From Escherichia coli (GTDB lineage Bacteria > Pseudomonadota > Gammaproteobacteria > Enterobacterales > Enterobacteriaceae): a stretch of 64,000 nt of DNA. Of this stretch, positions 1,756-46,118 are shown piece after piece. Below the pieces are notes generated by a model, which saw only the letters and a list, made by a program, of their open reading frames with translations, was not told the origin of the DNA and made no database searches. Made by a program: the position numbers and the translations under genes. The first letter of the stretch is position 1; every line of letters starts with the position of its first letter. The DNA lies in the NCBI RefSeq assembly GCF_003018115.1, contig NZ_CP027457.1. One strand, given 5' to 3'.

Positions 1756-1768
1756 ATCATTCAATGCA

Positions 1769-2383: not shown

Positions 2384-2800
2384 ATCTACCCTGCTTGTAC
2401 CATTATGTTATACACCTCTTCAGGAGTATTCATAAAACAAGGAAAATGTAAAGAACTGTATTGTTTTGTATAACAAGATGGTTGTCTAATCACCAAAGAA
2501 TATAAGCACCATCATTTCTCCCTATTTTTATATTAGAAGTGACATAGATTTGCAGGGTGATGCAGAGCTGACAATCACAGGTTTCCTTATCGGTTTTTGC
2601 ATCGTACAACTAAAGCAATAAAACAGCTCCCATCATCATCAACATCCCGGCGAACATGAATTTATTAGCCGGGCTCATAGCTGCATTCGCGTTTTAAGAA
2701 TAATCCTCCTGCTGTCGCCGACTATGCTTAACGTTTAAAAAAGCATCAGCACTCTCGCAACGCACTCTTATTTTCCCCTTTAGAATACCGGAGGCCTGGT

Positions 2801-3490: not shown

Positions 3491-4443
3491 AGGCGTTTAC
3501 CTATGAACGAGTGAACACCCCGGCCGAGGCGGCACTTAGCGCTCAGCGCGTACCCGGCGCAAAATTTATCGCGGGCGGGACCAATCTGCTGGACCTGATG
3601 AAGCTGGAAATTGAAACGCCCACCCACCTTATCGATGTGAACGGGCTCGGGCTCGATAAGATTGAAGTGACCGACGCGGGTGGGCTGCGCATCGGCGCAC
3701 TGGTACGGAACACCGACCTGGCGGCTCACGAGCGCGTGCGTCGTGATTACGCGGTACTCTCCCGCGCCCTGCTCGCTGGCGCGTCTGGTCAGTTACGCAA
3801 TCAGGCAACCACCGCAGGTAATCTGCTCCAGCGCACGCGCTGCCCCTATTTTTACGACACCAATCAGCCCTGCAATAAGCGCCTGCCCGGGAGCGGCTGC
3901 GCGGCGCTTGAAGGCTTTAGCCGTCAGCACGCGGTGGTAGGCGTAAGCGAAGCCTGCATTGCCACCCATCCGAGCGATATGGCGGTCGCAATGCGGTTGC
4001 TGGATGCGGTGGTGGAAACCATCACGCCGGAGGGAAAGACTCGCAGTATCACACTGGCTGATTTTTATCACCCACCGGGGAAAACGCCGCACATTGAAAC
4101 CGCCCTGCTTCCCGGTGAGCTTATCGTTGCGGTGACGTTACCTCCGCCGCTCGGCGGAAAACATATTTACCGTAAGGTGCGCGATCGCGCCTCCTACGCC
4201 TTTGCCCTGGTATCGGTCGCGGCGATTATTCAGCCTGACGGCAGCGGGCGCGTCGCGCTGGGCGGAGTAGCACATAAGCCCTGGCGCATTGAGGCTGCGG
4301 ATGCTCAGCTATCCCAGGGGGCACAGGCCGTATATGACACGCTGTTCGCCAGCGCCCATCCCACCGCTGAAAACACCTTTAAACTCCTGTTGGCGAAGCG
4401 AACGCTTGCCTCCGTACTGGCTGAAGCGAGGGCACAGGCATGA
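3487..4443 (+). CDS. paoB: Aldehyde oxidoreductase FAD-binding subunit PaoB
   Basis: 318 aa; start overlaps paoA stop (ATGA); FAD-binding molybdopterin dehydrogenase-like. Confidence 0.9.
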
Positions 4444-14259: not shown

Positions 14260-14335
14260 TGGTGCCGATAATAGGAGTCGAACCTACGACCTTCGCATTA
14301 CGAATGCGCTGCTCTACCAACTGAGCTATATCGGC
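14260..14335 (-). tRNA. thrW: tRNA-Thr (anticodon CGU)
   Basis: Reverse complement reads GCCGATATAGCTCAGTTGGTAGAGCAGCGCATTCGTAATGCG...TTCGACTCCTATTATCGGCACCA; cloverleaf with CGT anticodon and CCA end. Confidence 0.9.
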
Positions 14336-20713: not shown

Positions 20714-22171
20714 GTGTCTGAACTGTCTCAATTATCTCCACAGCCGCTGTGGGATATTTTTGCCAAAATCTGTTCTATTCCTCACCCGTCCTATCATGAA
20801 GAGCAACTCGCTGAATACATTGTTGGTTGGGCAAAAGAGAAAGGTTTCCATGTCGAACGCGATCAGGTAGGTAATATCCTGATTCGTAAACCTGCTACCG
20901 CAGGTATGGAAAATCGTAAACCGGTCGTCTTGCAGGCCCACCTCGATATGGTGCCGCAGAAAAATAACGACACTGTGCATGACTTCACGAAAGATCCTAT
21001 CCAGCCTTATATTGATGGCGAATGGGTTAAAGCGCGCGGCACCACGCTGGGTGCGGATAACGGCATTGGTATGGCCTCTGCGCTGGCGGTTCTGGCTGAC
21101 GAAAACGTGATTCACGGCCCGCTGGAAGTGCTGCTGACCATGACCGAAGAAGCCGGTATGGACGGTGCGTTCGGCTTACAGAGCAACTGGTTGCAGGCTG
21201 ATATTCTGATTAACACCGACTCCGAAGAAGAAGGTGAAATCTACATGGGTTGCGCGGGGGGTATCGACTTCACCTCCAACCTGCATTTAGATCGTGAAGA
21301 GGTTCCAGCTGGTTTTGAAACCTTCAAGTTAACCTTAAAAGGTCTGAAAGGCGGTCACTCCGGCGGTGAAATCCACGTTGGCCTCGGTAATGCCAACAAA
21401 CTGCTGGTGCGCTTCTTGGCGGGTCATGCGGAAGAACTGGATCTGCGCCTTATCGATTTCAACGGCGGTACACTGCGTAACGCCATCCCGCGTGAAGCCT
21501 TTGCGACCATTGCTGTCGCAGCTGATAAAGTCGACGCACTGAAATCTCTGGTGAATACCTATCAGGACATTCTGAAAAACGAGCTGGCAGAAAAAGAGAA
21601 AAATCTGGCCTTGTTGCTGGACTCTGTAGCGAACGATAAAGCTGCCCTGATTGCGAAATCTCGCGATACCTTTATTCGTCTGCTGAACGCCACTCCGAAC
21701 GGTGTGATCCGCAATTCCGACGTGGCAAAAGGTGTGGTTGAAACCTCCCTGAACGTCGGTGTGGTGACCATGACTGACAATAACGTAGAAATTCACTGCC
21801 TGATCCGTTCACTGATCGACAGCGGTAAAGACTACGTGGTGAGCATGCTGGATTCGCTGGGTAAACTAGCTGGCGCGAAAACCGAAGCGAAAGGCGCATA
21901 TCCTGGCTGGCAGCCGGACGCTAATTCTCCGGTGATGCATCTGGTACGTGAAACCTATCAGCGTCTGTTCAACAAAACACCGAACATCCAGATTATCCAC
22001 GCGGGCCTGGAATGTGGTCTGTTCAAAAAACCGTATCCGGAAATGGACATGGTTTCTATCGGGCCAACTATCACCGGTCCACACTCTCCGGATGAGCAAG
22101 TTCACATCGAAAGCGTAGGTCATTACTGGACGCTGCTGACTGAACTGCTGAAAGAAATTCCGGCGAAGTAA
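20714..22171 (+). CDS. pepD: Cytosol nonspecific dipeptidase (aminoacyl-histidine dipeptidase)
   Basis: 485 aa, GTG start; MSELSQLSPQPLWDIFAKICSIPHPSYHEEQ. Confidence 0.95.
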   Translation: MSELSQLSPQPLWDIFAKICSIPHPSYHEEQLAEYIVGWAKEKGFHVERDQVGNILIRKPATAGMENRKPVVLQAHLDMVPQKNNDTVHDFTKDPIQPYIDGEWVKARGTTLGADNGIGMASALAVLADENVIHGPLEVLLTMTEEAGMDGAFGLQSNWLQADILINTDSEEEGEIYMGCAGGIDFTSNLHLDREEVPAGFETFKLTLKGLKGGHSGGEIHVGLGNANKLLVRFLAGHAEELDLRLIDFNGGTLRNAIPREAFATIAVAADKVDALKSLVNTYQDILKNELAEKEKNLALLLDSVANDKAALIAKSRDTFIRLLNATPNGVIRNSDVAKGVVETSLNVGVVTMTDNNVEIHCLIRSLIDSGKDYVVSMLDSLGKLAGAKTEAKGAYPGWQPDANSPVMHLVRETYQRLFNKTPNIQIIHAGLECGLFKKPYPEMDMVSIGPTITGPHSPDEQVHIESVGHYWTLLTELLKEIPAK

Positions 22172-23268: not shown

Positions 23269-23721
23269 TTAATGTTGCGGTTTATATCGCATATAAAAAT
23301 TAGTAAACCACGCTCCCCGGCATTCAACGCGCTGCTGCTTAACTGTCTGAAAACCATAACGTTCAAAAAAGGGTTTTGCGGTTATGCTGGCATCTACCGT
23401 AAGTTCGGATTCAGACTTAATCAATGGTTTTAACAAGGCGCTGGCAACCCCGCGGCGGGTGTATTCAGGGTCAACAAATAACATATCGATATAACGTTCA
23501 ATGCGGGAAATAAAACCAACCGGTTGTGCATTAATGACGGCAACCCGCACTTGTGATTTCGCGAGTTTCTCCTTCCAGCGAGATTCGTCAATCTGCGCCC
23601 AGGCGGCAATTTGTTGTGGAGAATAGTGCTGACTGGAGGTCATCGTAACCGCTCTAATGAAAATAGCGCATAGTTGCTGAAAATCGCCAGGCTGATAGTT
23701 TCTTATTTGTATGTTATTCAT
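23269..23721 (-). CDS. yafP: GNAT family acetyltransferase YafP
   Basis: 150 aa [25 protein letters not shown]; ATG overlaps dinB stop. Confidence 0.9.
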
Positions 23722-24773
23722 AATCCCAGCACCAGTTGTCTTTCCATTTGCGGATCCAGCAACGTCACATGCAGCCCCACCAGTCGCACACCGCGCCCGC
23801 CGCGGCGTTCATCCCAGGTTTTACGCGCGGTGGCGATTAAGTCAGCTTTATTCAGCCGCGGCCAGACGTGCTCCTGGGTGGTTTGCTGAAAATCGTCGAA
23901 CTTTAATTTCACCCCCTGGCGAGCAATCAGTAAATCAGGTTTTACCTTTGCCAGACGGCGTTCAAGTTCCGGATACAGCCGCTCGATAATCGCTTCACAT
24001 TCAGACCAGTGATGAATATCTTCCGCCATCGTGCGTTCCACGCCGACGGATTTTCGCAACCGTTCGCTGTTAACATCGCGTTCGTCAATCCCCTGACTAC
24101 GCTCCCACAAAATGCGGCCAAATTTGCCAAAGCGTTTAAGCAGCATCACCAGATCACACTTTTGTACATCACCGCAGGTCCGCAGCCCCATCGCTTCCAG
24201 TTTTGCCGCCGAGACTTTGCCGACGCCGGGGATTTTTGCCAGTGGTAAGGTTTGTAAAAATGCCGGAACTTCTGCCGGCGTAATCACAAACTGGCCGTTG
24301 GGTTTATTCATGTCGGAGGCGATTTTGGCGAGAAACTTTACTGGTGCCACGCCCGCAGACGCCGTCAGTTGCAGCTCGTTGAAAATCGTCTGGCGGATTT
24401 CCTGGGCAATGAGGGTCGCAGAACCGTGGCAATGGACGCTGTCGGTGACATCGAGATAAGCCTCATCCAGTGACAACGGCTCAATGCGAGAGGTGTAGCG
24501 CGAGAAGATTTCACGGATATGATTTGAGGCTTCTTTGTAGGCGTCAAAGCGCCCCGGAAGCAAGGTGAGATGTGGGCATAATTTGAGCGCCATCCCTGTC
24601 GGCATAGCGCTGCGTACGCCAAATTTACGCGCGGGATAATTAGCGGTGCTGATCACCCCCCGACGTTCGCGGCTGCCGCCAATAGCAATAGGGATATCGC
24701 GCAGGGCGGGATTGTCGCGCATCTCCACTGCGGCGAAAAAGCAGTCCATATCCACATGAATGATTTTACGCAT
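23718..24773 (-). CDS. dinB: DNA polymerase IV
   Basis: 351 aa [33 protein letters not shown] (Y-family polymerase). Confidence 0.95.
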
Positions 24774-24787
24774 TACTCACCTCTCAA

Positions 24788-24805
24788 CACTGGTAAAGTA
24801 TACAG
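24788..24805 (-). promoter_or_regulatory. LexA (SOS) box upstream of dinB
   Basis: Reverse complement CTGTATACTTTACCAGTG fits CTGT-N8-ACAG. Confidence 0.75.
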
Positions 24806-24843: not shown

Positions 24844-25575
24844 TTAGCGCGTTCGCTGCGAAAGCACCTGCTGCTTATCCAGCTTTTGCACCAGCGGCTG
24901 CACCACTTTATCCCCATGCTGACCAAAGTATTGATACAGCGTATCGGACGCACTTTTGGTCAGCACCATAATCTCAATACGCCGATTGCCCGCGCTTTGC
25001 GGATTTTTGGCATCCAGCAGCATCTGGTCAGCCATTGCGCTTACCTGCATCACTTTATCTTCCGGCATTCCGGCCTCTTCCAGCACCCGACGAGCCGAAA
25101 GCGCGCGGTCACCCGAAAGGTTCCAGTTGTTGTAGATATTGTTTTTGTAAGCCATCGCATCGGTATGCCCGGTAATAATAATTTTGTTATCGAGCGAGTC
25201 GAACACTGGCGCGAGCTCCACCAGCAAAGTTTTAAAGAACGGCATAATCTGCGCGCTGCCGCGTTCGAACATATTGCGATTCTGGTCGTCTTTAATCAGC
25301 ACGCGTAATCCCTGCGGGACAATCTCCATCTCCAGATTCGCTTCCATATGCGCATCACGGGCAATGGTGTTGATACTGGTTGCCAGCTCGCCAAGCTCGG
25401 TGGCGGATTTCTTCTTCAGCAGCGCCGTTTTCTCATTCACATCACGCGCTTTTTTCTCCGTCTCTTCCGGCACCGCCACGGTGGCAGGTTTTGGCGGATG
25501 AGACGGGCTGATTTTATTTAACGGCGACAGCCCACCACCGTTAAAAATCGACTGCCCGTGCAGCGCGGCGATAAT
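24844..25575 (-). pseudogene. lafU: lafU (mbhA) MotB-like flagellar motor protein, 5'-truncated; Flag-2 remnant
   Basis: C-terminal OmpA-like domain (NWNLSGDRALSARRVLEEAGM... RRIEIMV) present, N-terminal TM segment absent; upstream part of ORF is antisense of lfhA fragment. Confidence 0.75.
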
Positions 25576-25599
25576 GCTTTCACGCTCGGATTTACTGAC

Positions 25600-27313
25600 G
25601 CTGTTGACAATCAACTTTATCGTCGTCACCAAAGGGGCCGAGCGTATTTCCGAGGTTTCTGCCCGCTTTACCCTGGACGCGATGCCCGGCAAACAGATGG
25701 CGATTGACGCCGACCTTAACGCCGGGTTGATCAACCAGGCGCAGGCGCAAACCCGGCGTAAAGATGTCGCCAGCGAGGCCGATTTCTACGGCGCGATGGA
25801 CGGGGCGTCAAAGTTTGTGCGCGGGGATGCCATCGCCGGGATGATGATTCTGGCAATCAACCTGATCGGCGGCGTCTGTATCGGGATCTTCAAATACAAC
25901 CTGAGCGCCGACGCCGCCTTCCAGCAATATGTGCTGATGACCATCGGCGATGGGCTGGTGGCGCAGATCCCTTCCCTGCTGCTCTCCACCGCGGCGGCGA
26001 TTATCGTCACCCGCGTCAGCGACAACGGCGATATCGCCCATGACGTGCGCCACCAGCTGCTGGCAAGCCCGTCGGTGCTCTACACCGCTACCGGGATCAT
26101 GTTCGTGCTGGCGGTGGTACCGGGGATGCCGCACCTGCCGTTTTTGCTGTTCAGCGCCCTGCTTGGTTTTACCGGCTGGCGGATGAGCAAACGCCCGCAG
26201 GCGGCAGAGGCGGAAGAGAAAAGCCTCGAAACGCTAACCCGCACCATCACCGAAACCAGCGAGCAACAGGTCAGTTGGGAAACCATTCCGCTGATCGAGC
26301 CCATCAGCTTAAGCCTCGGCTACAAACTGGTGGCGCTGGTGGACAAAGCGCAGGGCAACCCGCTCACCCAGCGGATTCGCGGCGTGCGGCAGGTGATTTC
26401 TGACGGCAACGGCGTGCTGCTGCCGGAGATCCGCATTCGGGAAAACTTCCGCCTCAAGCCGAGCCAGTACGCCATTTTCATCAACGGCATTAAGGCCGAT
26501 GAAGCGGATATTCCGGCGGATAAACTGATGGCCCTGCCCTCCAGCGAAACCTACGGCGAGATAGACGGCGTGCTGGGGAACGACCCGGCGTACGGGTTGC
26601 CGGTGACCTGGATCCAGCCTGCGCAGAAAGCGAAGGCGCTGAATATGGGGTATCAGGTGATCGACAGCGCCAGCGTGATTGCCACCCATGTGAATAAGAT
26701 TGTACGCAGCTATATTCCTGATTTGTTTAACTATGACGACATCACACAGTTGCATAACCGTTTGTCGTCGATGGCACCGCGCCTGGCAGAAGACTTAAGC
26801 GCGGCGCTGAATTACAGCCAGTTGCTGAAAGTGTACCGGGCGTTACTGACCGAAGGCGTTTCCCTGCGCGATATCGTCACCATCGCCACCGTGCTGGTCG
26901 CCAGTAGCGCGGTGACCAAAGATCATATTCTGCTGGCAGCCGATGTGCGCCTGGCGCTGCGGCGCAGCATTACCCATTCGTTTGTTCGCAAGCAGGAGCT
27001 GACGGTGTATACGCTGAATAATGAGCTGGAAAATCTGCTGACCAACGTGGTGAATCAGGCGCAACAGGGCGGGAAAGTGATGCTCGACAGCGTGCCGGTC
27101 GCCCCGAATATGCTCAACCAGTTCCAGAACACGATGCCGCAGGTAAAAGAGCAGATGAAAGCGGCGGGGAAAGACCCGGTGCTGCTGGTGCCGCCGCAGC
27201 TTCGCCCTTTGCTGGCGCGCTATGCGAGATTGTTTGCGCCGGGACTGCATGTGCTGTCGTATAATGAAGTGCCGGACGAGCTGGAGTTGAAGATTATGGG
27301 GGCGTTGATGTAA
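25600..27313 (+). pseudogene. lfhA: lfhA (fhiA) FlhA-like flagellar export protein, 5'-truncated; Flag-2 remnant
   Basis: Homology starts mid-protein (NFIVVTKGAERISEVSARFTLDAMPGKQMAIDADLNAG); lacks N-terminal TM domain. Confidence 0.75.
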
Positions 27314-27319
27314 GAATCC

Positions 27320-27500
27320 GGCATCGGTGCACAATTGCCGGATGCGGCGTGAACGCCTTATCCGGCCTACCGTTCAGGCACAGGTTTCCAGGCATGATAA
27401 GACGCGCCAGCGTCGCATCAGGCATCCGCGCACAACTGCCGGATGCGGCACAGATTTGTAGGCCGGATAAGCGTAAGCGCATCCGGCACCAGCGCACAAT
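27320..27500. repeat. REP/BIME cluster (several REP units)
   Basis: Repeated GCCGGATGCGGCGTGAACGCCTTATCCGGCCTAC-type palindromes. Confidence 0.85.
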
Positions 27501-27997
27501 TATAAAATAATACGCTCGCCAGCATTTAAATCCGTTATGTCTCCCGCCCAATCGATGGGATATAACCCTCGCGCAACATCGCGATGGAACGTTGAGAATG
27601 GCCAATCACACACCTGCTTAACCCAGCCATGTTTCACTGGATTTATATAAATATAATCAACATGATGCCGATAATCTTTTGTATTACGGATGGCATGCTC
27701 CCAAAAACGCGGTTGCCAGATATTTTTCAATCCGCAAGCATGGGTGAACTGCTTTTTAATCTCTCTCCAGCGCGAGGAAAAATCATCATCGCCTTCAGGT
27801 AATGTCCATATGCAATGCATATGCTCTGGTAAAACGACCCAAGCGTTGATTTCAAAAGGTCTGTCTCGCTTAACTTTAATAATAGCGTTACGGAGCATCT
27901 GGAACTGAGCGGTCAGAAGGTGGCTTCGACGATTTCGTAGGTTAACCGTGAAAAACCAGGTTCCCCCCTTGATGTAATACCGACGATATTCAGACAT
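27500..27997 (-). CDS. rayT: REP-associated tyrosine transposase RayT (TnpA-REP)
   Basis: 165 aa; IS200/IS605-like HUH transposase fold, flanked on both sides by REP sequences. Confidence 0.85.
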   Translation of the reverse strand: MSEYRRYYIKGGTWFFTVNLRNRRSHLLTAQFQMLRNAIIKVKRDRPFEINAWVVLPEHMHCIWTLPEGDDDFSSRWREIKKQFTHACGLKNIWQPRFWEHAIRNTKDYRHHVDYIYINPVKHGWVKQVCDWPFSTFHRDVARGLYPIDWAGDITDLNAGERIIL

Positions 27998-28059
27998 AGC
28001 GACTCCTTTTTCTCAACGGTAAGAAGAAAAGGAAAGGTCGGCAATGAGGTGATGGAATA

Positions 28060-28170
28060 ACGGGAAAGCGGCTCGCAAAAACGCACAAATTTGTAGGCAT
28101 GATAAGACGCGTCAGCGTCGCATCAGGCATCCGTGCACAACCGCCGGATGCGGCGTAAACGCCTTATCCG
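28060..28170. repeat. REP cluster
   Basis: TGTAGGCATGATAAGACGCGTCAGCGTCGCATCAGGCATC...GCCGGATGCGGCGTAAACGCCTTATCCG. Confidence 0.85.
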
Positions 28171-28172
28171 TC

Positions 28173-28922
28173 CTACAAAATCGTCTCCTCCGTCAAAATC
28201 CGTCGCGCGCCTAAAAAATGATCCTGCCAGAAAGGTTCAGCTAACCGACTTACCCGAATGGTTTCCCCGGTGCGCGGTGACTCAATAAACTGACCGTCTC
28301 CCAGATACACCCCCATATGGTCGGCAATCTCACGACTGTGAATATGGAAAAACAGCAAATCTCCCCGGCGCAGGTCGTTGTTCGCCACAATCGTTGCCCG
28401 ATGGTAGTGATACATCTCATTGGCTGTGCGCGGGAGCTTAGCCTCAAGGATCTTGTTGTAGGCATAAAAAACCAACCCGCTACAGTCGAAGCCTTTATCG
28501 GGCCGCGTGCCGCCCCAGACGTAAGGCTTGCCAAGTTGCTGTTCCAGGCGGTGAATCGCCACTTCGGTGATGTTATGCAGATGGTCACTGCTTAGAAAGT
28601 GGTTGTTTTCCGCCAGCGCCTGCCAGCGTCTGTCACTCGCCTTGAGCGGTGCAGGAAACCATTCTGGATGCTGTTTTATCTGCTCCCGGTTGTGCTGGCG
28701 TAGCGCCCTTCTGCTTTCGGCATTGCCTTCCACAATATAGCTGGCCTGTTTTTTCAGATGGGTTTGGTACTGTTTTAATAAACGCGCACGGTTTTGCATC
28801 CGCTGGCGGGCGGCGTAGCTGAAAGAGATATGTGATGTGGTGGCGCTGGCAAATGAAGAAAACGGCAAACAAATCAACAGTAATCCCGACAATACAAAGG
28901 ATGGAATCGACGGCAAGGACAT
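28173..28922 (-). CDS. yafL: NlpC/P60 family lipoprotein peptidase YafL
   Basis: Signal/lipobox region MSLPSIPSFVLSGLLLICLPFSSFA; C-terminal NlpC/P60 Cys-His domain (DCSGLVFYAY...H); start at internal Met. Confidence 0.8.
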   Translation of the reverse strand: MSLPSIPSFVLSGLLLICLPFSSFASATTSHISFSYAARQRMQNRARLLKQYQTHLKKQASYIVEGNAESRRALRQHNREQIKQHPEWFPAPLKASDRRWQALAENNHFLSSDHLHNITEVAIHRLEQQLGKPYVWGGTRPDKGFDCSGLVFYAYNKILEAKLPRTANEMYHYHRATIVANNDLRRGDLLFFHIHSREIADHMGVYLGDGQFIESPRTGETIRVSRLAEPFWQDHFLGARRILTEETIL

Positions 28923-29099
28923 ACTCAATAATGGCTGGTCATGCTTTAATGTTGCAGTGTATCCCGGATCGTTTCTGAACAAACTTAATAAACCATTATT
29001 ATAAAATTAACATATATATTTCAGTGAATTATGTAAATACATCAGTTTATTGAATTGCTCATGAATTGCCGCTGTTGCTCAATTGAGCTACAATTCAAG

Positions 29100-29115
29100 C
29101 TGAATATATATACAG
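29100..29115 (+). promoter_or_regulatory. LexA box in dinJ promoter
   Basis: CTGAATATATATACAG palindrome 17 bp upstream of dinJ ATG. Confidence 0.6.
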
Positions 29116-29131
29116 CACAGGAGATACCCCA

Positions 29132-29392
29132 ATGGCTGCTAACGCGTTTGTTCGCGCCCGAATCGATGAAGATCTGAAGAATCAGGCGGCGGACGTACTG
29201 GCCGGGATGGGGCTGACCATCTCTGACCTGGTTCGCATAACCCTCACAAAGGTCGCGCGTGAAAAGGCATTGCCGTTTGATTTACGCGAGCCTAATCAAT
29301 TAACCATTCAATCAATCAAAAACAGCGAAGCTGGCGTTGATGTTCATAAGGCCAAAGACGCCGATGATTTATTTGATAAATTAGGAATTTAA
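29132..29392 (+). CDS. dinJ: Antitoxin DinJ
   Basis: 86 aa MAANAFVRARIDEDLKNQAADVLAGMGLTISDLVRI. Confidence 0.95.
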   Translation: MAANAFVRARIDEDLKNQAADVLAGMGLTISDLVRITLTKVAREKALPFDLREPNQLTIQSIKNSEAGVDVHKAKDADDLFDKLGI

Positions 29393-29394
29393 AT

Positions 29395-29673
29395 ATGATT
29401 CAAAGGGATATTGAATACTCGGGACAATTTTCAAAGGATGTAAAACTTGCACAAAAGCGTCATAAGGATATGAATAAATTGAAATATCTTATGACGCTTC
29501 TTATCAATAATACTTTACCGCTTCCAGCTGTTTATAAAGACCACCCGCTGCAAGGTTCATGGAAAGGTTATCGCGATGCTCATGTCAAACCGGACTGGAT
29601 CCTGATTTACAAACTTACCGATAAACTCTTACGATTTGAGAGAACTGGAACTCACGCGGCGCTCTTTGGGTAA
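29395..29673 (+). CDS. yafQ: mRNA interferase toxin YafQ (RelE family)
   Basis: 92 aa MIQRDIEYSGQFSKDVKLAQKRHKDM...; 2 nt after dinJ stop. Confidence 0.95.
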   Translation: MIQRDIEYSGQFSKDVKLAQKRHKDMNKLKYLMTLLINNTLPLPAVYKDHPLQGSWKGYRDAHVKPDWILIYKLTDKLLRFERTGTHAALFG

Positions 29674-29828
29674 AGCCCGCTTCCGATGAAATTTGTAAAC
29701 CCTGCGCCGACAGGCTTGCGTAAAACTCTTTTGGTGATAATGTGAGCCTTCCAAATCCAGACTATTCCGATTTGGGATCCATTTTGCCGTCCTGGCGTGT
29801 GTAACCGTTTTATCAAGGAATAAGCAGT

Positions 29829-30569
29829 ATGCGTAAAATCGCATTAATTCTTGCGATGTTGTTGATCCCGTGCGTTTCGTTTGCCGGTTTGCTGGGCAGC
29901 AGTAGCTCGACCACGCCAGTGAGCAAAGAGTATAAGCAGCAGTTGATGGGATCCCCTGTCTACATCCAGATCTTCAAGGAAGAACGTACGCTCGATCTCT
30001 ACGTCAAAATGGGCGAGCAATATCAACTGCTCGACAGCTATAAAATCTGTAAATATTCCGGCGGCTTAGGGCCAAAACAGCGTCAGGGCGATTTCAAAAG
30101 CCCGGAAGGGTTTTATAGTGTCCAGCGTAATCAGTTAAAACCAGACAGCCGTTACTACAAAGCGATTAATATTGGTTTCCCCAATGCCTATGACCGTGCG
30201 CATGGTTATGAAGGGAAATACCTGATGATCCACGGCGATTGTGTTTCCATCGGCTGCTACGCAATGACCAATCAGGGTATTGATGAGATCTTCCAGTTCG
30301 TTACTGGTGCGCTGGTGTTTGGTCAGCCGAGCGTGCAAGTGAGTATTTACCCGTTCCGCATGACCGACGCCAATATGAAGCGCCATAAATATTCCAACTT
30401 TAAGGACTTCTGGGAGCAACTGAAGCCGGGTTACGACTACTTTGAGCAAACCCGTAAGCCACCGACCGTTTCTGTGGTCAATGGCCGTTACGTGGTCAGC
30501 AAGCCGTTAAGCCACGAAGTGGTGCAGCCACAACTGGCATCAAACTACACGCTCCCCGAGGCAAAATAA
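29829..30569 (+). CDS. yafK: Periplasmic L,D-transpeptidase-fold protein YafK
   Basis: 246 aa with signal peptide; YkuD-like catalytic core [12 protein letters not shown]. Confidence 0.9.
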
Positions 30570-31369: not shown

Positions 31370-31505
31370 GGTCGGATGCGGCGTGAACGCATTATTCGGC
31401 CTACGGTTCGCGTACAGATTTGTAGGCATGATAAGACGCGTCAGCGTCGCATCAGGCATCAGCGCACAAATGCCGGATGCGGCGTAAACGTCTTATCCGG
31501 CCTAC
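31370..31505. repeat. REP/BIME cluster
   Basis: GGATGCGGCGTGAACGC...TGTAGGCATGATAAGACGCGTCAGCGTCGCATCAGGCATC...GCCGGATGCGGCGTAAACG. Confidence 0.85.
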
Positions 31506-35444: not shown

Positions 35445-36212
35445 GTGCCTGGTTTGAAGATTACGCTTTTGCAGCAACCACTGGTGTGGATGGATGGCCC
35501 TGCCAACCTGCGTCATTTTGATCGTCAACTGGAAGGTATTACCGGGCGCGATGTGATCGTTCTACCGGAGATGTTTACCAGCGGCTTTGCCATGGAAGCG
35601 GCAGCTTCGTCGCTAGCACAAGATGACGTAGTGAACTGGATGACAGCTAAGGCGCAGCAGTGCAATGCGCTGATTGCAGGCAGTGTTGCATTACAAACGG
35701 AGTCTGGTTCGGTTAACCGCTTTTTGCTGGTTGAGCCGGGCGGCACGGTACATTTTTATGATAAGCGTCATCTGTTCCGCATGGCAGATGAGCATCTACA
35801 TTATAAAGCGGGCAATGCGCGAGTGATTGTGGAATGGCGCGGCTGGCGTATTTTGCCGCTGGTGTGCTACGACTTACGTTTTCCTGTGTGGTCGCGCAAT
35901 CTCAACGATTATGACCTCGCCCTGTACGTCGCCAACTGGCCTGCTCCGCGCTCTCTGCACTGGCAGGCATTGCTGACGGCCCGCGCGATTGAGAATCAGG
36001 CGTATGTGGCGGGATGCAATCGCGTCGGCAGCGATGGCAACGGCTGCCATTATCGCGGTGACAGCCGGGTGATTAATCCACAGGGCGAGATTATCGCTAC
36101 TGCCGACGCGCATCAGGCAACGCGCATTGATGCGGAGCTGTCGATGGCGGTGTTAAGGGAATATCGCGATAAGTTTCCGGCATGGCGGGATGCGGATGAG
36201 TTTAGGTTGTAG
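35445..36212 (+). CDS. yafV: Omega-amidase / nitrilase-family hydrolase YafV
   Basis: GTG start giving [22 protein letters not shown]; carbon-nitrogen hydrolase E-K-C triad region. Confidence 0.9.
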
Positions 36213-36239
36213 TGAGTGGGTGTTGTGTTTAGGGCTGGG

Positions 36240-36680
36240 GAGAGTCGGGGAAGACTACGAAAGCCCGCTCTCCTGCGACCACTTTTATCATAGGAGTGTG
36301 GAAGTGCTTTTCCATCAATCGCGATGACGTCTTTGTCATTTGATGAATGGCAGTCACGCATCCAGTTAATAAAGCACTCGTGAAATTTTGCAGGACTGAT
36401 ACAGGATACAACTCTGGCAATGGTATCGTGAACAGGAATACCATTTTCAAAATCACCATATTGCTTCAAAAAATCGAGATGTGTTTCCCCAAAATCCTCT
36501 ATATCTTCCCAACCTTCTGCACCAGAAATAACGGCACAAATAGTCAACAGTAGAATATCCGATAATTTATGTTCCACGTTCCAGGCTTGTCTGTAATCGG
36601 GGATAACAGAAATATGTTCCATCAATTTTTTAAGTTCCATTTTGTTCTCCTTAATTATGTAAGGAGTATTTGATCCAGGG
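36240..36680 (-). mobile_element. Internally deleted ISAs1-family (H-repeat) element; encodes only first ~120 aa of transposase
   Basis: Near-identical to 37420..37860 (same antisense ORF on both copies); protein diverges after ...DKS; shared end motif ACGAAAGCCCGCTC at both elements. Confidence 0.75.
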
Positions 36681-36685
36681 CAAGA

Positions 36686-37822
36686 TTACGAAAGCCCGCT
36701 CCCCGCAAGGACTGACGCCAGATAGTTTCTGTCCATGGCTGCTTTTCGCATCTTACGTCTTAACCCTGCCTTGAATACCTTATCATTCGTCAAAATATTA
36801 ATAGCAATGTGCCGTATCCCTGAAAATAATTCCGCTGCATTTCCTCTTCTTATTCTGCAGTCGTCTTCATTCATTACCACGTCCAGGCGCCAGTGCAGCT
36901 TATTTTCCACGTGCCAGTGATTTCGGTTCGCTGTGGCGAACTTCTCTGCAGTTAAATCAGCAGAGCTGATATAATATCTGACCGTCATTTCGGGTTCTTT
37001 CTTTTGTTCTGCTATTATTGACCGAAAGGAGACTGCCACGCATAATTTCTTCAGCCCTTTCCATTCAAACGTGAAATCAATAAGTTCATCAGGGACATCG
37101 CAAACAATATGAAGACGGATTTCTTCTCTGCCGTGACTCTTTTCACTGATTGCGTAACTGTCATGCTCTGGATTATTTAATTCTTTCAGCGGAAATTTTT
37201 CCTCAAAGGCTTTATTTAGCCGCCCCTGGTTTCCTTTTACCGCGAATAAATAATCACCTCCCTGTTTTTGTATCTTCTCTGCAATATCTTTCTGGCAACC
37301 CATCGCATCAGTTGTGATGATTTTTCCTTTAATATCCAGCATGTTAAGAAGTTCTGGGATAGCTGTAATCTCATTAGATTTCTCATCCGTCCTGATCTGT
37401 CCGATGACCAGACTGTGCATTGTTGAGAACGCACTAATGACATGAATCGCTCCCCTGCGGCGACTCTTGTCATAAGAGTGCCGGAGCGTTTTTCCATCAA
37501 TTGCAATGACGTCTTTATCATCTGAAGAATGGCAGTCACGCATCCAGTTAATAAAGCACTCGTGAAATTTTGCAGGACTGATACAGGATACAACTCTGGC
37601 AATGGTATCGTGAACAGGAATACCATTTTCAAAATCACCATATTGCTTCAAAAAATCGAGATGTGTTTCCCCAAAATCCTCTATATCTTCCCAACCCTCT
37701 GCACCAGAAATGACGGCACAAATAGTCAACAGTAGAATATCTGACAATTTATGTTCTACTTTCCAGGCTTGTCTGTAATCGGGGATAATAGAAATATGTT
37801 CCATCAGTTTTTTAAGTTCCAT
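36686..37822 (-). mobile_element. ISAs1-family transposase (H-repeat-associated protein), complete
   Basis: 378 aa [60 protein letters not shown]... DDE transposase typical of Rhs-associated H-rpt. Confidence 0.9.
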
Positions 37823-38290
37823 TTTGTTCTCCTTATTTATGCAAGGAGTATTTGATCATATATAAGCTATGAAAAATAGTTTTAGGTAATAAGGAATATC
37901 TCAATTATTGAACATTTAGCGCGAATTATTTAGTACAAAAAGTGTACTTCTGATGACCTTTCCCTGCTCCAAAGTCTTCTAAAATCAACAATGTAGACTC
38001 TTAATTATATTTATCAACACAATAATCTATCCTATTACTATCTTGACAAGAGAGAACCGTTTTTTATTTAAATATATGATACACATCATTAAATATATAA
38101 CCATACTTTTTCATAAGGCAATCTAACTTAGCTCTTAAATCACCAAAACCCATCACACCATAACATCTAATAGCCATTGCCACACGTCACCATGGATTTA
38201 TTTCCACCTGCAATTACTTCGTCCTAACTTTAATTTAATCTCAAGAAGCATTAAGATCTCAATAGCGAGCTTAATACTTCTTGAATAATA

Positions 38291-38668
38291 TCACTCCTGA
38301 CCAAAATTTTTCCACACTAATGCATGAGACTTTGATTTGTCACCCAGAAATTTACTTACATCTTGCCAAAGTAAAGAATTGCTATCGGTCGCAGTGACTA
38401 TTGCCTCTATAAGCCCTGTAGCTACAACTGTGGCCAATTCATCATCAAGCGAGACCATACCATCTTCGACATGTTTAAATATTTTTTCTCTTTCAATATC
38501 CCCCATTTCATAAAAATTTTTTACAATCGTTTTTCCAACCTGAGAGAACAACATAACCACCGGTGGCGTTTCTGGATGCCAGTATTCATTAGCTAATGAG
38601 ACTGTCTCAGACAAAACAGTGGAAAATGATGCCATTTTTTCTATATAACTAGCAATATATTGGTTCAT
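38291..38668 (-). CDS. Putative Rhs immunity protein (RhsI), family unassigned
   Basis: 125 aa acidic ORF whose ATG shares one base with the Rhs stop (TAATG); AT-rich like the Rhs CT. Confidence 0.7.
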   Translation of the reverse strand: MNQYIASYIEKMASFSTVLSETVSLANEYWHPETPPVVMLFSQVGKTIVKNFYEMGDIEREKIFKHVEDGMVSLDDELATVVATGLIEAIVTATDSNSLLWQDVSKFLGDKSKSHALVWKNFGQE

Positions 38669-41600
38669 TACTTGCCTCCCAAAGCATTCTGTAAATCCTG
38701 AAGAACGTTTTCTGCTGCTGCTCGATCCCCTGGAGATGCTGTTGGATTCTTATCCAACCAATCCTGTAAAGCCCTTGTATAATCCTGTGCTTTCAATACA
38801 TGTCCTCTACCACCAACTTTTTCACCTGTGGCCAATTCATAACGAACAGCATCTGCTGTGCTTCCACTTCCTACTTTTGCATTTGGCCGATAAAGATCGT
38901 CTATAATATTTTTCAAATTTGAATCTGTAACGTCGGGTTTTCCCATTTTCTGTCGCAATTCATCTTTATACCGTTCATGCTGCATACGATCCCTTGCGCT
39001 ATTCTCATCTTCTGGTCCCCATCCTCCCGGGCTTCCCGTACTGCCGCCGGCCAGGCAGTTCTTCTCTTCATCCGTCAAATCCTTCCCAACATTCGGCTGA
39101 CTCCCTGACGAATTATCATTCTCATGTGGGCTATCTAAAGGACAACTACTGGTCCAGTAACACATTTCAGCCTGAGAATTTATTAACTGCCCATCGCTCA
39201 GAGCCTTCCCGGCACGCCCATCATTAGCGAGAAGGTCATATCCCATTGGCCCAGCGACCACAGCCATTGCTCCAAGAGCAGGGGCAGCAGACGCCATAGC
39301 CGCCGTGACTGCATCAAAAGTCGCCGCCCCACCCGAAAGTAACGCCCCCCCAAATTCTGTTCCTGTTACTGTTGTGGCAGAACCAAGAACCAGTGTCTCA
39401 CCAGACAACCCAAGAGGATCCCCCCGCTGCACCGGGTTCAGCGGATACGCATACAGGTTCCATCCCCCCTTCAGCCCAATGGGATCCTGGGTGATATAGC
39501 GTCCCTGCAACGGATCGTAGTACCGGTTCCGGTTATAGTACAGCCCCGACTCCTCATCATACTGCTGCCCCGGCAGACGGAGTGACTGTTGAAGGTGCTG
39601 CGCGCTGGTTTCGCCCAGCAGGTTTCCCCACTCGTCATACTCCCCCTGCCACGCCGTTTCCCCTTCCGGGCTGATGAGCGCCAGCGGCAGTCCCCGGTGG
39701 TCGCAGTGGTAAAGATGAAGTTTCCTCTCCGGGATGTATTCCGCCTCCAGCTGTGCGGCCATCTGCTCCGCCGTCAGCCCGCACTGCGCAAGCCATGCCT
39801 CACTCTCCGCACTCACCGCTCCCGCGCGCAGTTCCCGCTCCAGCCTCCCCAGCATCACCGACAGCTCCGCCGGTAGCGTCACACCCGTGTCCTCCTGCAA
39901 CACCTCCGCCAGGCTCCGGTGCCGCGCCTTCGCCTGTTCGCCATTCTCTGTTTCGATTCTCAGGAGCGGCGTGAAGCTCCCCGGCTGGTATACCGTCTGG
40001 ATACGCGTGGTGCCGGTCTGTATCGTCGTCAGCCTGTCACCGTCCCACCCGTACCATGTCACCTCCGGTTTACGCGACAGCGACATCCACCCCGTCAGGT
40101 CACGCTCCCGCCGCCATACCCGTTTTCCCGTCCGGCGGCCCAGCGGGTCATAGAGGTACCGGCTCTCCACCTGTGGTTCGCCGTGCTGTATCCGCGTGTA
40201 GAACACCAGGCGGTGCTGGCTGTCGTAGTGATAGTGGTGGGTGCGCTCGTCGTGCATCCGGATAACCCCTTCCGGGATACGGTCCGTCTTCTCCGCCAGC
40301 CTGCCGTATTCATCGTGGCGGTAGACATAGTGCGCATCCTCCGCGATGCGGTTATCCGGCCACGCCGTGAGCGTGCTGTCCGGGTGCAGTTCCGGGTCCG
40401 GCAGCCGGTTTCCTGCCGGGTCCGTCGCATACGGGATATCAATGTCCAGGTTCGCTGCCGTGGTGTGGACGCCCGTCAGCCTTCCCGTGCCGCTGTAACG
40501 GTACTCCCGGCTCTCCTGCGGGCCGCTGATGCGGATTAGCTGTCCGTTGTCGTTCCACGTATACTCACGGTCAAGCTGCGGAAGGTTCAGGTGCCTGCTC
40601 CGGAGCTGGCCGCTGGTATTCCAGGCGGTGGCAAGTTCATATGCCTCCCCGCCGAAGCTGCGGGCCGTCTCACGGTGCAGCCGGTCCCGCGTGTACTCGA
40701 CCAGCGGCGTTCCGCCCAGCTTCATCCCCGCAAGATAACCGCTGCCATACGTCAGCCACTCCACCGGCGGCAGACCGTCCGGCTCCTGACGGGTCGCCAG
40801 CCCCTGTTCGCTGTACGCATGCCCCGTCTCATGCTCCCACAGCATCTCCCCCGTCTCCGGGTTCTCCACCGTCTGCCGTTCGCCCGTCAGGCGGCCTTTA
40901 TCGTCATAGCCGTAGTGGACCGACACGCGGTGGCCTTCACTGGTATGGCTGAGGGTGGTTAACCACCCGTGCTCATCATACTGCCACTGCTCTGCCGGGT
41001 CGCCGTTCACCGTCCGGTGCGTGATGCGGTCCGACGCATCGTAGTGCCAGAGGGTGATAAGCCCCTCGTCTTCACTCTGCGTGAGTTTTCCGGTCAGGTC
41101 ATAGTGGTAACGTTGCGTCCGGCCGTCAAAACCGCGCTGTTCAGTCAGCCTGTCCACCGGGTCATACCGGAACGTGGACTGGCTGCCGTTCTCGTTGGTC
41201 AGCACGGTGATGCGCCCGGCAGCGTCATACCCCATGCTGCGCGTAAGACCGCCTTCCGTCACACTCACCGGACGCCCGTGTTTATCATATTCGATGGTGC
41301 TGCGTTTACCGTCCGGTGATATCGTTGCTGTCAGGTCGCCTGCGGCGCTGTACTCATAACGGATTTCACGCCCCTGCGCATCCTTCTGACTGACCAGTTG
41401 CCCACGCGGGTTATAACTGCTGTAAGTGCTGATGCCTTCCTCCCGGTGAACGGCGATTTGTTGACCGTACCAGTCATACTCATACCGCGTCGTGTACCCC
41501 GAGCAGTCCGTGAAGGCCCGAAGCTGACCGTACCGGTTTCGCGTTATTCTCCGCGTCACCCCGGTTCCGTCTTCCACCGCGCCGGGCAGGCTACTGCGGG

Positions 41601-43173
41601 GGGAGTCATAAAACCAGCGCGTAATGTTACCGTTGCGCGAGGTCTCTTCTGCCAGTCGGCCCTGACGGTCATATTTCCGGTTGCTGCGTAAACCATCCGG
41701 ATATGTCACTGAAGTCAGTTGCAACTGGCTGTTGTAACCATACCGTACCGTCCTGCCGTCCGGCAGTATCACTGAAGTCAGCTTTCCAGACGCCATATGC
41801 AGCCGGTACTCCGTCCGCCGCCCCGCCGCATCCGTCTGCGCCTTCAGCCTCCCCGCCTCATCATACTCGCTGCGGGTGATGCTCCCGTCCGCATGTTCCT
41901 TCTTCACCACACGCTTCAGGCCACCTTCGCCCTCCGTGTACAGCACCTCCCGCCGGTTCAGGCTGTCCGTGATGGTCACACGGTCCTGCCCGTACTCAAA
42001 GCGGTAGTCCAGCCCCTCCGGGTTGACCTGTTCTGTCACCCGACCGGTATCATCATACCGGTAGCGGCTCTCCGGCCTCCCTGCATAATGGTGCGCCACC
42101 ATCCGCCCGGCGTGCTGCACATCATAAGTAAACCCGCGCACCTGCGTCCCGCTGCGGTCATACACCGCCCGCAGTTCTCCGCTGGCCGTGTACGTGTAGC
42201 GCGCCAGCGGCGCAGTCGGCTGTTCATCCGGGTATGCCGGGTCGTGTGTCAGCCACACCGCCTCCAGCCGGATACCGTTATCGGCACCGTACTCTGTACC
42301 GGCGGGCAGCGTGTCGGGGAAAGCTGAAGAAAAGGAAGAAGAGGAAACAGAACGGGGACTGGCCGGGGAAGATAAGGAAGACTCGCGCTGTTTACGGAAG
42401 GCTTCCGCCCGCTGCGCCTGTGTGGTCAGCGCCAGGTGAAAACGGCGGCCCGCGCCGTCCGTCACCCCCGTCACCGCGCCCGCCACGTCACCCTCCGCCG
42501 CCCTGTGAAAGGCCAGCGTCCGACCAAAGCCATCCACCACGCCCGTCAGCACCCGGTATGCGGGCGGCTCCGGCGGCAGCACCTCGTCCGCCTCCGGCAC
42601 CCGCTCCGGCCAGCTGAGCACCAGCCACTGCCCGGTTGTGCTGACAGCCATCATATAGGTGTGTGGACTCAGACGGACCGCTTCCGGCAGCGCCCGCCAG
42701 AGCCGGGCCAGCGGGTGGCCTTTGTGTTGTTTCAGCACCCCACCCCTTGCCAGCCAGAGTGACTCGCTGCGGCTGTAGCTTATCTCGCCGGGAAACAGCG
42801 GCTCAAAGTGAATGCTCCTGCCGCCGTTGTCGTTGAGTATCAGTTCCCGCTCATGAATCTGTAAGCGGATATCAAAGGGGGCTTTCCAGCCGGGGCCAAA
42901 CACCCCCACCGGCGCGGGCGTCCTGGTCCGGTAACTGCTGTAGGCACGGGAAAGAATGAACGGCAGCGGGCCGGGCAGCGCAAGGTCCGTCTCGCCCGGC
43001 AGCACCTTCGCACCCAGTAGCGGGTTCACCGGGTTAGCATAGGTAATCCCTCCCGGACACACCGAGCAGGCCACTCCCGTCGGCGCACCTATCAGCACCC
43101 CCGCTGAACCCTGCACAATATCCAGTCCCTTGCGGGTCATATCACCCTGCCGCGCCGCCGGTTTTCCGCCCAT
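38668..43173 (-). CDS. rhs: Rhs-family polymorphic toxin: N-terminal PAAR-like region, YD-repeat core, variable C-terminal toxin domain
   Basis: 1501 aa; N-term [12 protein letters not shown]...[10 protein letters not shown]; many YD repeats; core ends [27 protein letters not shown]; ~245 aa CT encoded at 38671..39405. Confidence 0.9.
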
Positions 43174-43248
43174 GAATCAATTCCTTCTGCTTTTAATATG
43201 GTTTATCTGGTCACTGCACCAGTTCCGTTTTGATTTTTTGCGCCTGAC

Positions 43249-45390
43249 TCAAAATTGCCGCATATCCGGCATTCCGGGGGGTAAATCTTTCGGCACAGGC
43301 GCATCCGGTACAGGTTGTGTGGCACCACAGTTCCAGTTAATCACCGGCGCATCACCGTTCACATCCGACTCCCCTTCCAGATGAATGTGCGTACCATTAA
43401 GAAATATGCTTCCGTCCTTCGTCAGCACCAGCCTTGCCTTACCACAGCAGAGTTCAAGATGCTCACCGGCAGAATAAACTGCTGTTTGTCCGGTGTTTTC
43501 CTTCATCGTCTTGCCCACCGAGAAGGTGACGTTATTCCCTACATTGACGCTGTAGCCCATTCCCACCATCAGTGATTTATGCAGCCCTACCTGTGAGGAC
43601 TGCAACAACGCCACCGAGGTATTCATAATGCCGCCTACCGTCGTCTGATACGCCACACCCACCGTCAGCGCACGAATGATCCCCACCTTTTCAACCTGGT
43701 TTGATCCCACTTTGATAATCTGGTTACTGCCCACCGTTTCCACCTGGTTGACACCAACCGTCTGTATCTGATTAACGCCAATGTTCTGGATCTGGTTATT
43801 GGTAACGGTGATCGCCTGGTTGTTACCTATTTTTTCGGCATGGTTGTTTATCACATCAGTGGTGCGGTTATTCAGCACCTCGGTGTTCATGTTCTTCTGC
43901 GCGTGGATGTAGACCTGTTCTTTCCCTGTCGCATCGTCAAACTTCAGTTCATTAAACCCGCTGCCCTTATAGGTTTTCGAACGAATGGTCATCTGCGTCT
44001 TTGTTCCCGGCAGGCTGCCGGGTGTGCGGTTTTCCTGGTGGTAGGTGCGCCCCATAATGATCGGCTGGTCCGGATCGCCGTTGAGGAAGTCCACAATCAC
44101 CTCCTGACCCACACGCGGTATCGCCAGGTTACCAAACCCGGTGCCTGCCCACGCCTGTGCCACACGGATCCAGCATGAACTGTCCTGGTTTGACGGGTTA
44201 TAGCGGTCCCAGTTAAATTTCACCCGCACGCGACCATGTTCGTCGCAGAAGATTTCCTCGCCTGCCGGTCCCGTCACGACGGCGCTCTGCGGGCCATCCA
44301 CCAGCGGTTTCAGCAACGGCTGTGGTCGCCATGTTCTGTCTGCCGGTATTACCGCAAAATGGTTATCCAGCGTGGTGCCTGAACCCCTGCGTCCCGGTAC
44401 CGCCTGCGGCTGTTCGCCGTGAAGATCGCTCGCCACCACCTGCCATTCCCGGTTCAGGTTCGCCTGCGGATGCCCCGTCAGCACAATTCGCCGTCCCGGC
44501 CATATCTCCGGCGAACGGCTTGTTCCGCGCGCCACTTCTGCGTTGTTTCGCCAGCCATCCATCTGCCAGCGGGCAAAGTTCTGCCCGTGGGCACCCTTGA
44601 AACGTCCGGGGTAGTCATACACTTCATACTGTGTGCGCTGGTAATCCTGGTACTGGCCTTCCTGATCAAAACGCCCTGCCCAGCCGGGTCGTTTAAAGGT
44701 GTAGTCTTTGGTCACCACGGAAGAAGGGCGGATTTGTGCGCTGTAGCGAAACTGGCTGATGCAGAGGGTGCTTACCTCGGTACGGGTGTTCGGATTCCAG
44801 GGGATCTCAAAGGACTCCGGCAGATAACGCACGGTATCGCACAGGACCAGGCTCTGGTCGGTACTTTTTTGCGCGTGCTCCTCATAAAAGAAGATGCCTT
44901 CCTCCGCCGCCATCCGGCACAGGAAATCGTAATCAGTCTCACCGTACTGGACACAAAACTCACGGGAAGGATGCGGTTCACTGAACAGCGGACTCCACTC
45001 GGTCACCCCGTTTTCCTGCAATATCGTGCCGAGGATGCTTTTGATGTCCTCGTTCTGGAAGATACGGAAGTTCTGGCGCAGCCCTGTGCGCCACAGCGGC
45101 GGGCATACCTTCATGCTGTACAGCTTCTGGTTTTTGTCGTTCTCCCCCAGTTCAAACCAGGTCACCACACCTTTCACCCGGCGCTGTACGTCATCGCCCT
45201 GCCATATCGTCAGGTAGGCCATTTTGTCGAGGATCTGCTGGAATTCAAGGGAGAGAAACTGCTGGCTGACCAGAGAGAGAGCGAGGGAAAAAAGCGAAGA
45301 GAGTGACTGGTTCAGATGAAAGGAGACCACCGCAAAAGCATCCGGTGGCAGGCCGTCCACTTCCAGCGTGAAACGTAATCCGGTTGACAT
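43249..45390 (-). CDS. vgrG: Type VI secretion spike protein VgrG
   Basis: 713 aa; gp27/gp5-like VgrG; 75 bp upstream of rhs. Confidence 0.9.
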   Translation of the reverse strand: MSTGLRFTLEVDGLPPDAFAVVSFHLNQSLSSLFSLALSLVSQQFLSLEFQQILDKMAYLTIWQGDDVQRRVKGVVTWFELGENDKNQKLYSMKVCPPLWRTGLRQNFRIFQNEDIKSILGTILQENGVTEWSPLFSEPHPSREFCVQYGETDYDFLCRMAAEEGIFFYEEHAQKSTDQSLVLCDTVRYLPESFEIPWNPNTRTEVSTLCISQFRYSAQIRPSSVVTKDYTFKRPGWAGRFDQEGQYQDYQRTQYEVYDYPGRFKGAHGQNFARWQMDGWRNNAEVARGTSRSPEIWPGRRIVLTGHPQANLNREWQVVASDLHGEQPQAVPGRRGSGTTLDNHFAVIPADRTWRPQPLLKPLVDGPQSAVVTGPAGEEIFCDEHGRVRVKFNWDRYNPSNQDSSCWIRVAQAWAGTGFGNLAIPRVGQEVIVDFLNGDPDQPIIMGRTYHQENRTPGSLPGTKTQMTIRSKTYKGSGFNELKFDDATGKEQVYIHAQKNMNTEVLNNRTTDVINNHAEKIGNNQAITVTNNQIQNIGVNQIQTVGVNQVETVGSNQIIKVGSNQVEKVGIIRALTVGVAYQTTVGGIMNTSVALLQSSQVGLHKSLMVGMGYSVNVGNNVTFSVGKTMKENTGQTAVYSAGEHLELCCGKARLVLTKDGSIFLNGTHIHLEGESDVNGDAPVINWNCGATQPVPDAPVPKDLPPGMPDMRQF

Positions 45391-45549
45391 AGCAACCTCC
45401 GGGGTTAAGGAAAAACAGACAGTTCGCTGTTAAAGCGGCTGTGACAGTACAGTGTTACGCTTGCGTTCAGGCACGCTACCGCCGAAGTTTCCGGCAGCCG
45501 CCATCTCCCGTGAACGTAACCCCTTACTGACAACCTTTCTTTCTACGGC

Positions 45550-45592
45550 GTAATACAAAAACAGCATCCGGCCTGATAGCCGGATGCTGTTG
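45550..45592 (-). terminator. rho-independent terminator/attenuator after hcp
   Basis: Perfect 11-bp stem CAGCATCCGGC/GCCGGATGCTG with 6-nt loop, followed on the minus strand by TTTTTGTATT. Confidence 0.7.
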
Positions 45593-45599
45593 GCTTAAC

Positions 45600-46118
45600 T
45601 TATGCTTCCAGCGGTGCGCGCCAGTCGTCGGCACCGGAGGTGCCAGATTTGACGTGTTCCCATTCAATTTTGCGGTAGGCCAGTGAAACTTCGAGCAACT
45701 GGGTGAACTCGCGTTTCGCCGGGTCCTGGCAATGCGGCATATGCAGTTTCATATCGACAATCGTCGAATCAGTCAGGCGGGTAGTGAAATAATGCTCCTG
45801 TTTGCCTTCCACAGAGGTACGCCACCAGTGAAGTTCAGTGGTTGGCAGCATTTCGCCGGAGGCCAGTGCGTTGTACATCAGCGGAACCGCTTTGTTCAGC
45901 GCCACGGTAAAAATGAAAGGCTTGTGAGCACGCTGACCCGCAGGCTGACCGGACTGAGGATCGGTCGGGACAGTAACGTTATGCAGGAATTCCTGCACCA
46001 GCATCTCGTCTTCGTGCCCCTGCACATAGATGTTGCCGACAGAATCAGCGGTAAATGCACCTGCAGTAATATTTCCCTGGGTCTGACCAGTGATGGAGAT
46101 ATAACACGGTGTTGGCAT
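45600..46118 (-). CDS. hcp: Type VI secretion tube protein Hcp (TssD)
   Basis: 172 aa MPTPCYISITGQTQGNITAGAFTADSVGNIYVQGHEDEMLVQ. Confidence 0.9.
   Translation of the reverse strand: MPTPCYISITGQTQGNITAGAFTADSVGNIYVQGHEDEMLVQEFLHNVTVPTDPQSGQPAGQRAHKPFIFTVALNKAVPLMYNALASGEMLPTTELHWWRTSVEGKQEHYFTTRLTDSTIVDMKLHMPHCQDPAKREFTQLLEVSLAYRKIEWEHVKSGTSGADDWRAPLEA

Follow-up and report, generated by a model that had tools for sequence, protein, structure and literature searches.

The chromosomal dinJ-yafQ toxin–antitoxin operon of an Escherichia coli strain with a dinB operon lacking yafNO

The closest known counterpart of the locus reported here is the dinJ-yafQ pair of Escherichia coli K-12, for whose proteins growth arrest by the toxin and neutralisation by the antitoxin are established. 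Mutagenesis of K-12 YafQ has identified H50, H63, D67, H87 and F91 as required for toxicity, with Y47 and K48 (ribosome-binding) and three lysine/arginine patches also mattering (PMC4652777). Structures are available for the DinJ–YafQ complex (4ML0 and 4Q2U) and for free YafQ (4ML2, 4MMG and 4MMJ). The archetype for comparison is relBE of E. coli, and its toxin RelE, like YafQ, cuts mRNA on the ribosome. YafQ differs in having its own histidine-based active site and a narrow AAA-A/G specificity, and dinJ-yafQ is reported to work without conditional cooperativity, with DinJ repressing the operon equally well in the presence or absence of YafQ (PMC4996492), and to have LexA as an extra, external repressor. 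The other LexA-tied toxin–antitoxin pair of this chromosomal neighbourhood is yafN-yafO, which belongs to the dinB operon and is absent from the stretch of DNA described below.

Gene layout, family membership and protein sequences

Gene integrity, family membership, synteny and the required residues could be read directly from the window, by which we mean the whole 64-kb stretch of DNA analysed. Positions 29100-29673 hold an intact dinJ-yafQ module, as a first-pass annotation had proposed. The antitoxin gene dinJ (RelB/DinJ family) is an ATG open reading frame of 86 aa at 29132-29392 on the plus strand, ending in TAA at 29390-29392, and yafQ, which encodes a toxin of the RelE/YafQ family of ribosome-dependent endoribonucleases, is an ATG open reading frame of 92 aa at 29395-29673 on the same strand. 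Between them lies a 2-nt spacer, 'AT' at 29393-29394. Both genes are full length and of exactly the K-12 lengths, and neither the open reading frame calls nor the alignment to K-12 revealed a frameshift or premature stop in dinJ or yafQ. That alignment, which the annotation had suggested as a check, gave 98.2% nucleotide identity over the 661-nt locus with the reading frames intact. Two ribosome-binding sites were read from the sequence, each 8 nt 5' of its ATG and on the plus strand: a Shine-Dalgarno AGGAG for dinJ at 29119-29123, and an AGGA for yafQ at 29383-29386, within the 3' end of dinJ. The arrangement is that of a type II toxin–antitoxin system, with two small co-directional genes, the antitoxin first, and one promoter-like site upstream.

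Profile searches placed both proteins well above curated cut-offs. DinJ scored 117 bits against Pfam RelB PF04221 (cut-off 22.4, E = 3.4e-34) and 83.7 bits against NCBIfam TIGR02384 (RelB_DinJ; cut-off 45.65), while matching the solved RelB weakly. YafQ scored 110.9 bits against Pfam YafQ_toxin PF15738 (cut-off 30, E = 3.8e-32) and 121.1 bits against NCBIfam TIGR00053 (YafQ family; cut-off 87.25), and it belongs to the RelE/StbE subfamily (TIGR02385, 93 bits). The flanking genes and their order (dinB, lafU, an lfhA remnant, rayT, yafL, dinJ, yafQ, dpaA (yafK), yafJ, lpcA and fadE) are shared with K-12 and strain F9792, and the RefSeq names agree as well. The pair had been called a known module, and names, synteny and family scores all agree with that description. 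We consider it almost certain that the locus is the chromosomal type II toxin–antitoxin operon dinJ-yafQ of E. coli at its usual site between yafL and yafK (dpaA), and the pair is here an ordinary feature that has already been described.

Little else was found around the two genes. Two minus-strand open reading frames over the 3' end of yafQ (29629-29844 and 29652-29816) were set aside as mechanical, being unannotated in all matched genomes. An Rfam scan of the whole window returned no match in or beside dinJ-yafQ, a terminator search found no intrinsic terminator 3' of yafQ, and RNA folding of the yafQ-yafK spacer gave nothing significant (z = -0.94).

The proteins are nearly identical to their K-12 counterparts. 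DinJ shares 85 of 86 residues (99%) with K-12, the sole difference being I69V; it is 100% identical to PDB chain 4ML0_A, and its exact sequence occurs on at least 1000 public contigs. YafQ shares 90 of 92 residues (98%) with K-12, differing by Y12F and E65K, is 98-99% identical to the crystallised chains and aligns end to end with all of them. Chain B of 4ML0 shares F12 with the window's YafQ but carries S54 where the window has G54, and all solved YafQ chains have E65, in contrast to K65 in the window. Every residue implicated by mutagenesis in K-12 (the five required positions, Y47, K48 and the lysine/arginine patches) is unchanged. In organization, the window agrees with K-12 in locus, in the order and lengths of the genes, in the 2-nt spacer, and in the layout of the promoter and the position of the palindrome. 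The window's strain is a close relative of E. coli F9792, to which the sequence is 99.97% identical over 18.6 kb, and the single gap between the two may be the pepD frameshift: pepD (20714-22171) is an intact 485-aa open reading frame in the window and is annotated as frameshifted in F9792.

If the module works like the K-12 system, dinJ and yafQ would be co-transcribed from a single promoter, and DinJ would dimerize by means of the ribbon-helix-helix at its N terminus while its C-terminal part would wrap around YafQ and mask the active site. Free YafQ would bind the ribosome and cut mRNA at in-frame AAA-A/G lysine codons, with H50 or H63 serving as base and H87 as acid, D67 tuning H87 and F91 stacking on the mRNA. 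The operon would be repressed by DinJ, with or without YafQ, and would also be repressible by LexA through a palindrome over the expected transcription start. For the present allele, toxicity, neutralisation, codon specificity and the binding of DinJ and LexA are thus expected by analogy with the K-12 allele.

The dinJ promoter and its palindromes

A consensus scan predicted a sigma-70 promoter for dinJ-yafQ at 29066-29094 on the plus strand (9 of 12 matches), composed of a -35 element TTGCCG (29066-29071), a 17-nt spacer and a -10 element TACAAT (29089-29094). The presence and position of a palindrome of LexA-box type can be read directly: CTGAATATATATACAG lies 16 nt upstream of the start codon of dinJ, at 29100-29115, where the first-pass annotation had placed it. 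It begins 5 nt after the predicted -10 box and should therefore cover the transcription start. As a 16-bp CTG-N10-CAG palindrome with an AT-rich centre, it resembles the boxes of the LexA regulon and matches CTGTATATATATACAG at 15 of 16 positions, making it the only site within three mismatches in the 64-kb window (chance expectation 0.05, with any such match in 5 of 100 shuffles). The bare CTG-N10-CAG frame, which matched 28 times in the window against 15 expected, is uninformative alone.

The window's box differs from that of K-12, CTGAATAAATATACAG, by a single base, an A to T change at 29107 that raises the consensus match from 14 to 15 of 16, and eight other substitutions separate the two promoter regions at 29026-29082. 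The listed heterology index of the dinJ box in K-12 is about 7.1, and a change from a non-consensus to a consensus base can only lower this index. The change is rare: exact matches to the 61 nt around the box were found in only 19 records, including ETEC O169:H41 strains and F9792. An inverted-repeat search also revealed a near-perfect 20-bp palindrome, TGTTGCTCAA/TTGAGCTACA, at 29073-29092, between the -35 and -10 elements and overlapping the -10 box. Its arms are gapless and 90% complementary, and with A at 29082 in place of the T of K-12 it forms 9 of 10 pairs versus 8 of 10. We infer that this second palindrome is a candidate operator for the ribbon-helix-helix dimer of DinJ.

Across 27500-29190, divergence from K-12 falls abruptly on entering the dinJ promoter. 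It amounts to 8.8% in rayT, 13% in the rayT-yafL spacer, 5.6% in yafL and 4.4% in the yafL-dinJ spacer (where all nine differences fall at 29026-29107), compared with 0.8% in dinJ, 1.1% in yafQ and about 1-2% in the downstream genes yafK through yafV. This distribution suggests a recombination boundary inside the dinJ promoter, at about 29107-29188, and the box variant and the T to A change at 29082 look like passengers on a divergent left-hand rayT-yafL haplotype. Two Rfam naRNA4 (REP-type) elements on the minus strand, at 28096-28173 and 31425-31502, are 91.6% identical to each other and bracket yafL-dinJ-yafQ-yafK-yafJ; the first of these adjoins the REP-associated transposase gene rayT.

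The dinB operon and the rest of the window

The annotation had set dinJ-yafQ against a neighbouring dinB operon that lacks its own toxin–antitoxin pair, and this side observation is borne out. On the minus strand, dinB (23718-24773) is followed directly by yafP (23269-23721) with a 4-nt overlap, such that the stop codon of dinB and the start codon of yafP share ATGA at a fusion point of 23718-23724, and DinB and YafP each score above equivalog thresholds. Aligned with K-12, the window shows a clean gap in place of a 759-bp segment containing yafN and yafO. Directly upstream of the dinB start, a LexA box of the CTG-N10-CAG type (CTGTATACTTTACCAG on the gene strand) lies at 24790-24805 on the minus strand and is identical in K-12; it corresponds to the established dinB operator.

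In K-12, yafNO lies between two direct copies of a 7-bp sequence (TCATAAT when read on the plus strand, ATTATGA on the gene strand), around 2883-2889 and 3642-3648 of the compared K-12 locus; in the window this sequence stands at the fusion point, 23718-23724. The repeat exceeds in length the ATGA described in the 2011 paper discussed next and fits a deletion through microhomology.

Gutierrez et al. described the two-gene dinB operon in 2011; 40-50% of strains had it, in every case with the ATGA overlap, and they attributed it to deletion on repeated occasions, given the four-gene operon of E. fergusonii (PMC3105422). Of the two histories that the annotation had left side by side, that the pair was lost or that it was never there, the published analysis thus favours loss (PMC3105422). 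Our counts point to a similarly common arrangement: yafNO is present in 2,847 of 5,426 complete genomes, and the dinB/yafP fusion junction occurs in about 2,563 records, or about 47% of the 5,426. Co-occurrence was estimated using a chimeric query that joined the 53-nt dinB/yafP junction to the 661-nt dinJ-yafQ locus (4,589 records, 5,912 places); taken together with the search for the dinJ-yafQ locus alone, this puts the fusion together with dinJ-yafQ in about 1,320 of 3,346 records, about 39% of the dinJ-yafQ carriers. An evenly spaced sample of the listed dinJ-yafQ carriers gave 9 of 22 with both. With about 1,320 records holding both, the idea that the presence of dinJ-yafQ without yafNO is unusual was rejected; the contrast between dinJ-yafQ and the yafNO-less dinB operon is real, common and already published.

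Several other features of the window deserve brief mention. At 24844-27313, lafU abuts a 5'-truncated flhA-like gene (lfhA), the scar that loss of the Flag-2 lateral flagellar cluster usually leaves and that K-12 and F9792 carry too. A tRNA-Thr (CGT) gene at 14260-14335 on the minus strand adjoins proA, a common site of island insertion, and an Rfam IS009 RNA match lies near the window's left end (1565-1763, minus strand). The region downstream of yafV, from 36113-46118 onward to about 61000, is absent from K-12 and is the window's most variable part among E. coli genomes. It contains an ISAs1/ISEc1 transposase, a gene for an RHS core protein of 1501 aa (38668-43173) and a VgrG gene (43249-45390), as well as an apparent cluster of type VI secretion genes.

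SOS control, toxin function and distribution

The first-pass annotation had called the module SOS-linked, and for K-12 the literature points in more than one direction. LexA has been reported to bind the K-12 dinJ promoter, yet induction of dinJ by DNA damage in K-12 'experimentally has not been seen' (PMC4996492), and deleting lexA raises expression of a dinJ-lacZ fusion only 2-3-fold (PMC6015884). In Salmonella, a gene called dinJ rises 7.8-fold with nalidixic acid but represents a different locus from dinJ-yafQ. The label is the accepted one and rests on the box and on the reported LexA binding, but since damage induction of dinJ is undemonstrated even in K-12, the tie to the SOS response may be a weak or conditional one. 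A doubtful though possible reading is that the palindrome at 29100-29115 is mainly a site of autorepression by DinJ or DinJ-YafQ, that its likeness to a LexA box is of little physiological consequence and that the module stands outside the SOS response. The absence of observed damage induction would fit such a role, as would the ability of DinJ alone to repress as well as the DinJ-YafQ complex. A review table assigns to DinJ, with reference to Prysak 2009, the K-12 16-mer at dinJ-yafQ, and in cspE it assigns to DinJ a perfect LexA-like palindrome (PMC11610964); the operator assignment to DinJ rests on this table, and LexA occupancy on secondary accounts. Against a purely autoregulatory role stand the reported LexA binding and the rise of the fusion without lexA, together with two properties of the box: it lies over the expected transcription start, as working LexA boxes usually do, and the window's allele is nearer to the LexA consensus than that of K-12. 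The two roles are also mutually compatible, and because the K-12 version of the same 16-mer is listed as a DinJ site while LexA binding is reported, the palindrome may serve both repressors. It is conceivable, although improbable, that LexA, and perhaps DinJ, could bind the window's rare promoter allele more tightly than that of K-12, in which case DNA damage would truly induce dinJ-yafQ in this lineage.

The remaining alternatives concern the toxin and the reason for the module's persistence. E65K lies between catalytic H63 and D67, flips a charge two residues from both of them and is the only YafQ change unseen in any crystallised YafQ, and the allele is a minority one, with only 12 of 3,346 records reaching 99% identity or more across the 661 nt; the toxin might on these grounds be attenuated in the window's lineage and the pair be decaying functionally. 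We regard this as very unlikely. A family alignment of 105 full-length YafQ representatives, each from a separate 50%-identity cluster, revealed near-invariant catalytic positions (H50 in 104, H63 in 102, D67 in 99 and H87 in 100) but a variable position 65 (E in 53, Q in 12, K in 9, A in 8, S in 6, G in 4 and R in 3), so that lysine or arginine is found there in 12 of the diverse relatives and A, S, G or Q in 30 more. At position 12, F is found in 97 of the 105, which makes the Y12 of K-12 the exception and F12 the family norm. Judged from the alignment, E65K and Y12F both fall inside family variation, and with position 65 variable in this way E65K appears to be an ordinary instance of it; a toxin disabled by E65K was rejected as unlikely on the same basis. 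Position 65 is likewise absent from the residues found necessary by mutagenesis (PMC4652777), the exact YafQ protein recurs on 462 public contigs and an intact antitoxin is kept beside it. A separate question is whether this apparently sound module has a role in its host. The 661-nt locus is present in 3,339 of 5,426 complete E. coli genomes, annotated as dinJ and yafQ throughout, and is missing from about 38%. In CFT073, homology to the window stops in the 5' end of yafL (28858) and restarts at 29689, 16 nt past the yafQ stop; in place of the 830-nt stretch CFT073 has 235 unrelated nt, and it lacks rayT as well. Strain PSS-11 has lost the lfhA remnant, rayT, yafL, dinJ and most of yafQ through an IS1-associated deletion. 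As chromosomal toxin–antitoxin pairs usually do, dinJ-yafQ behaves in its distribution like a discrete and dispensable cassette, and the patchy presence and the two losses lend some weight to the more tentative idea that it persists as a selfish addiction cassette through its own toxicity, without host function, the window showing the 'present' state of a polymorphism. However, the module is chromosomal and occupies a fixed site, with about 1% divergence and intact frames over thousands of genomes, and K-12 phenotypes have been published for biofilm tolerance, RpoS/CspE control and low-temperature growth (PMC4996492). The selfish-cassette reading bears on biological role only, and not on the identity or mechanism of the dinJ-yafQ operon.

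The PSS-11 deletion spans 1691-3071 of the compared locus of that strain, where IS1 is in place and the last ~44 nt of yafQ are left, and represents an independent IS-mediated loss.

The strain thus keeps a working-looking copy of dinJ-yafQ without yafNO, a combination found in about a quarter of complete E. coli genomes, and beyond correct annotation the significance of the locus is small. Its natural one-base box variant, being nearer to consensus, could serve as a ready-made allele for testing whether dinJ-yafQ is really under SOS control.
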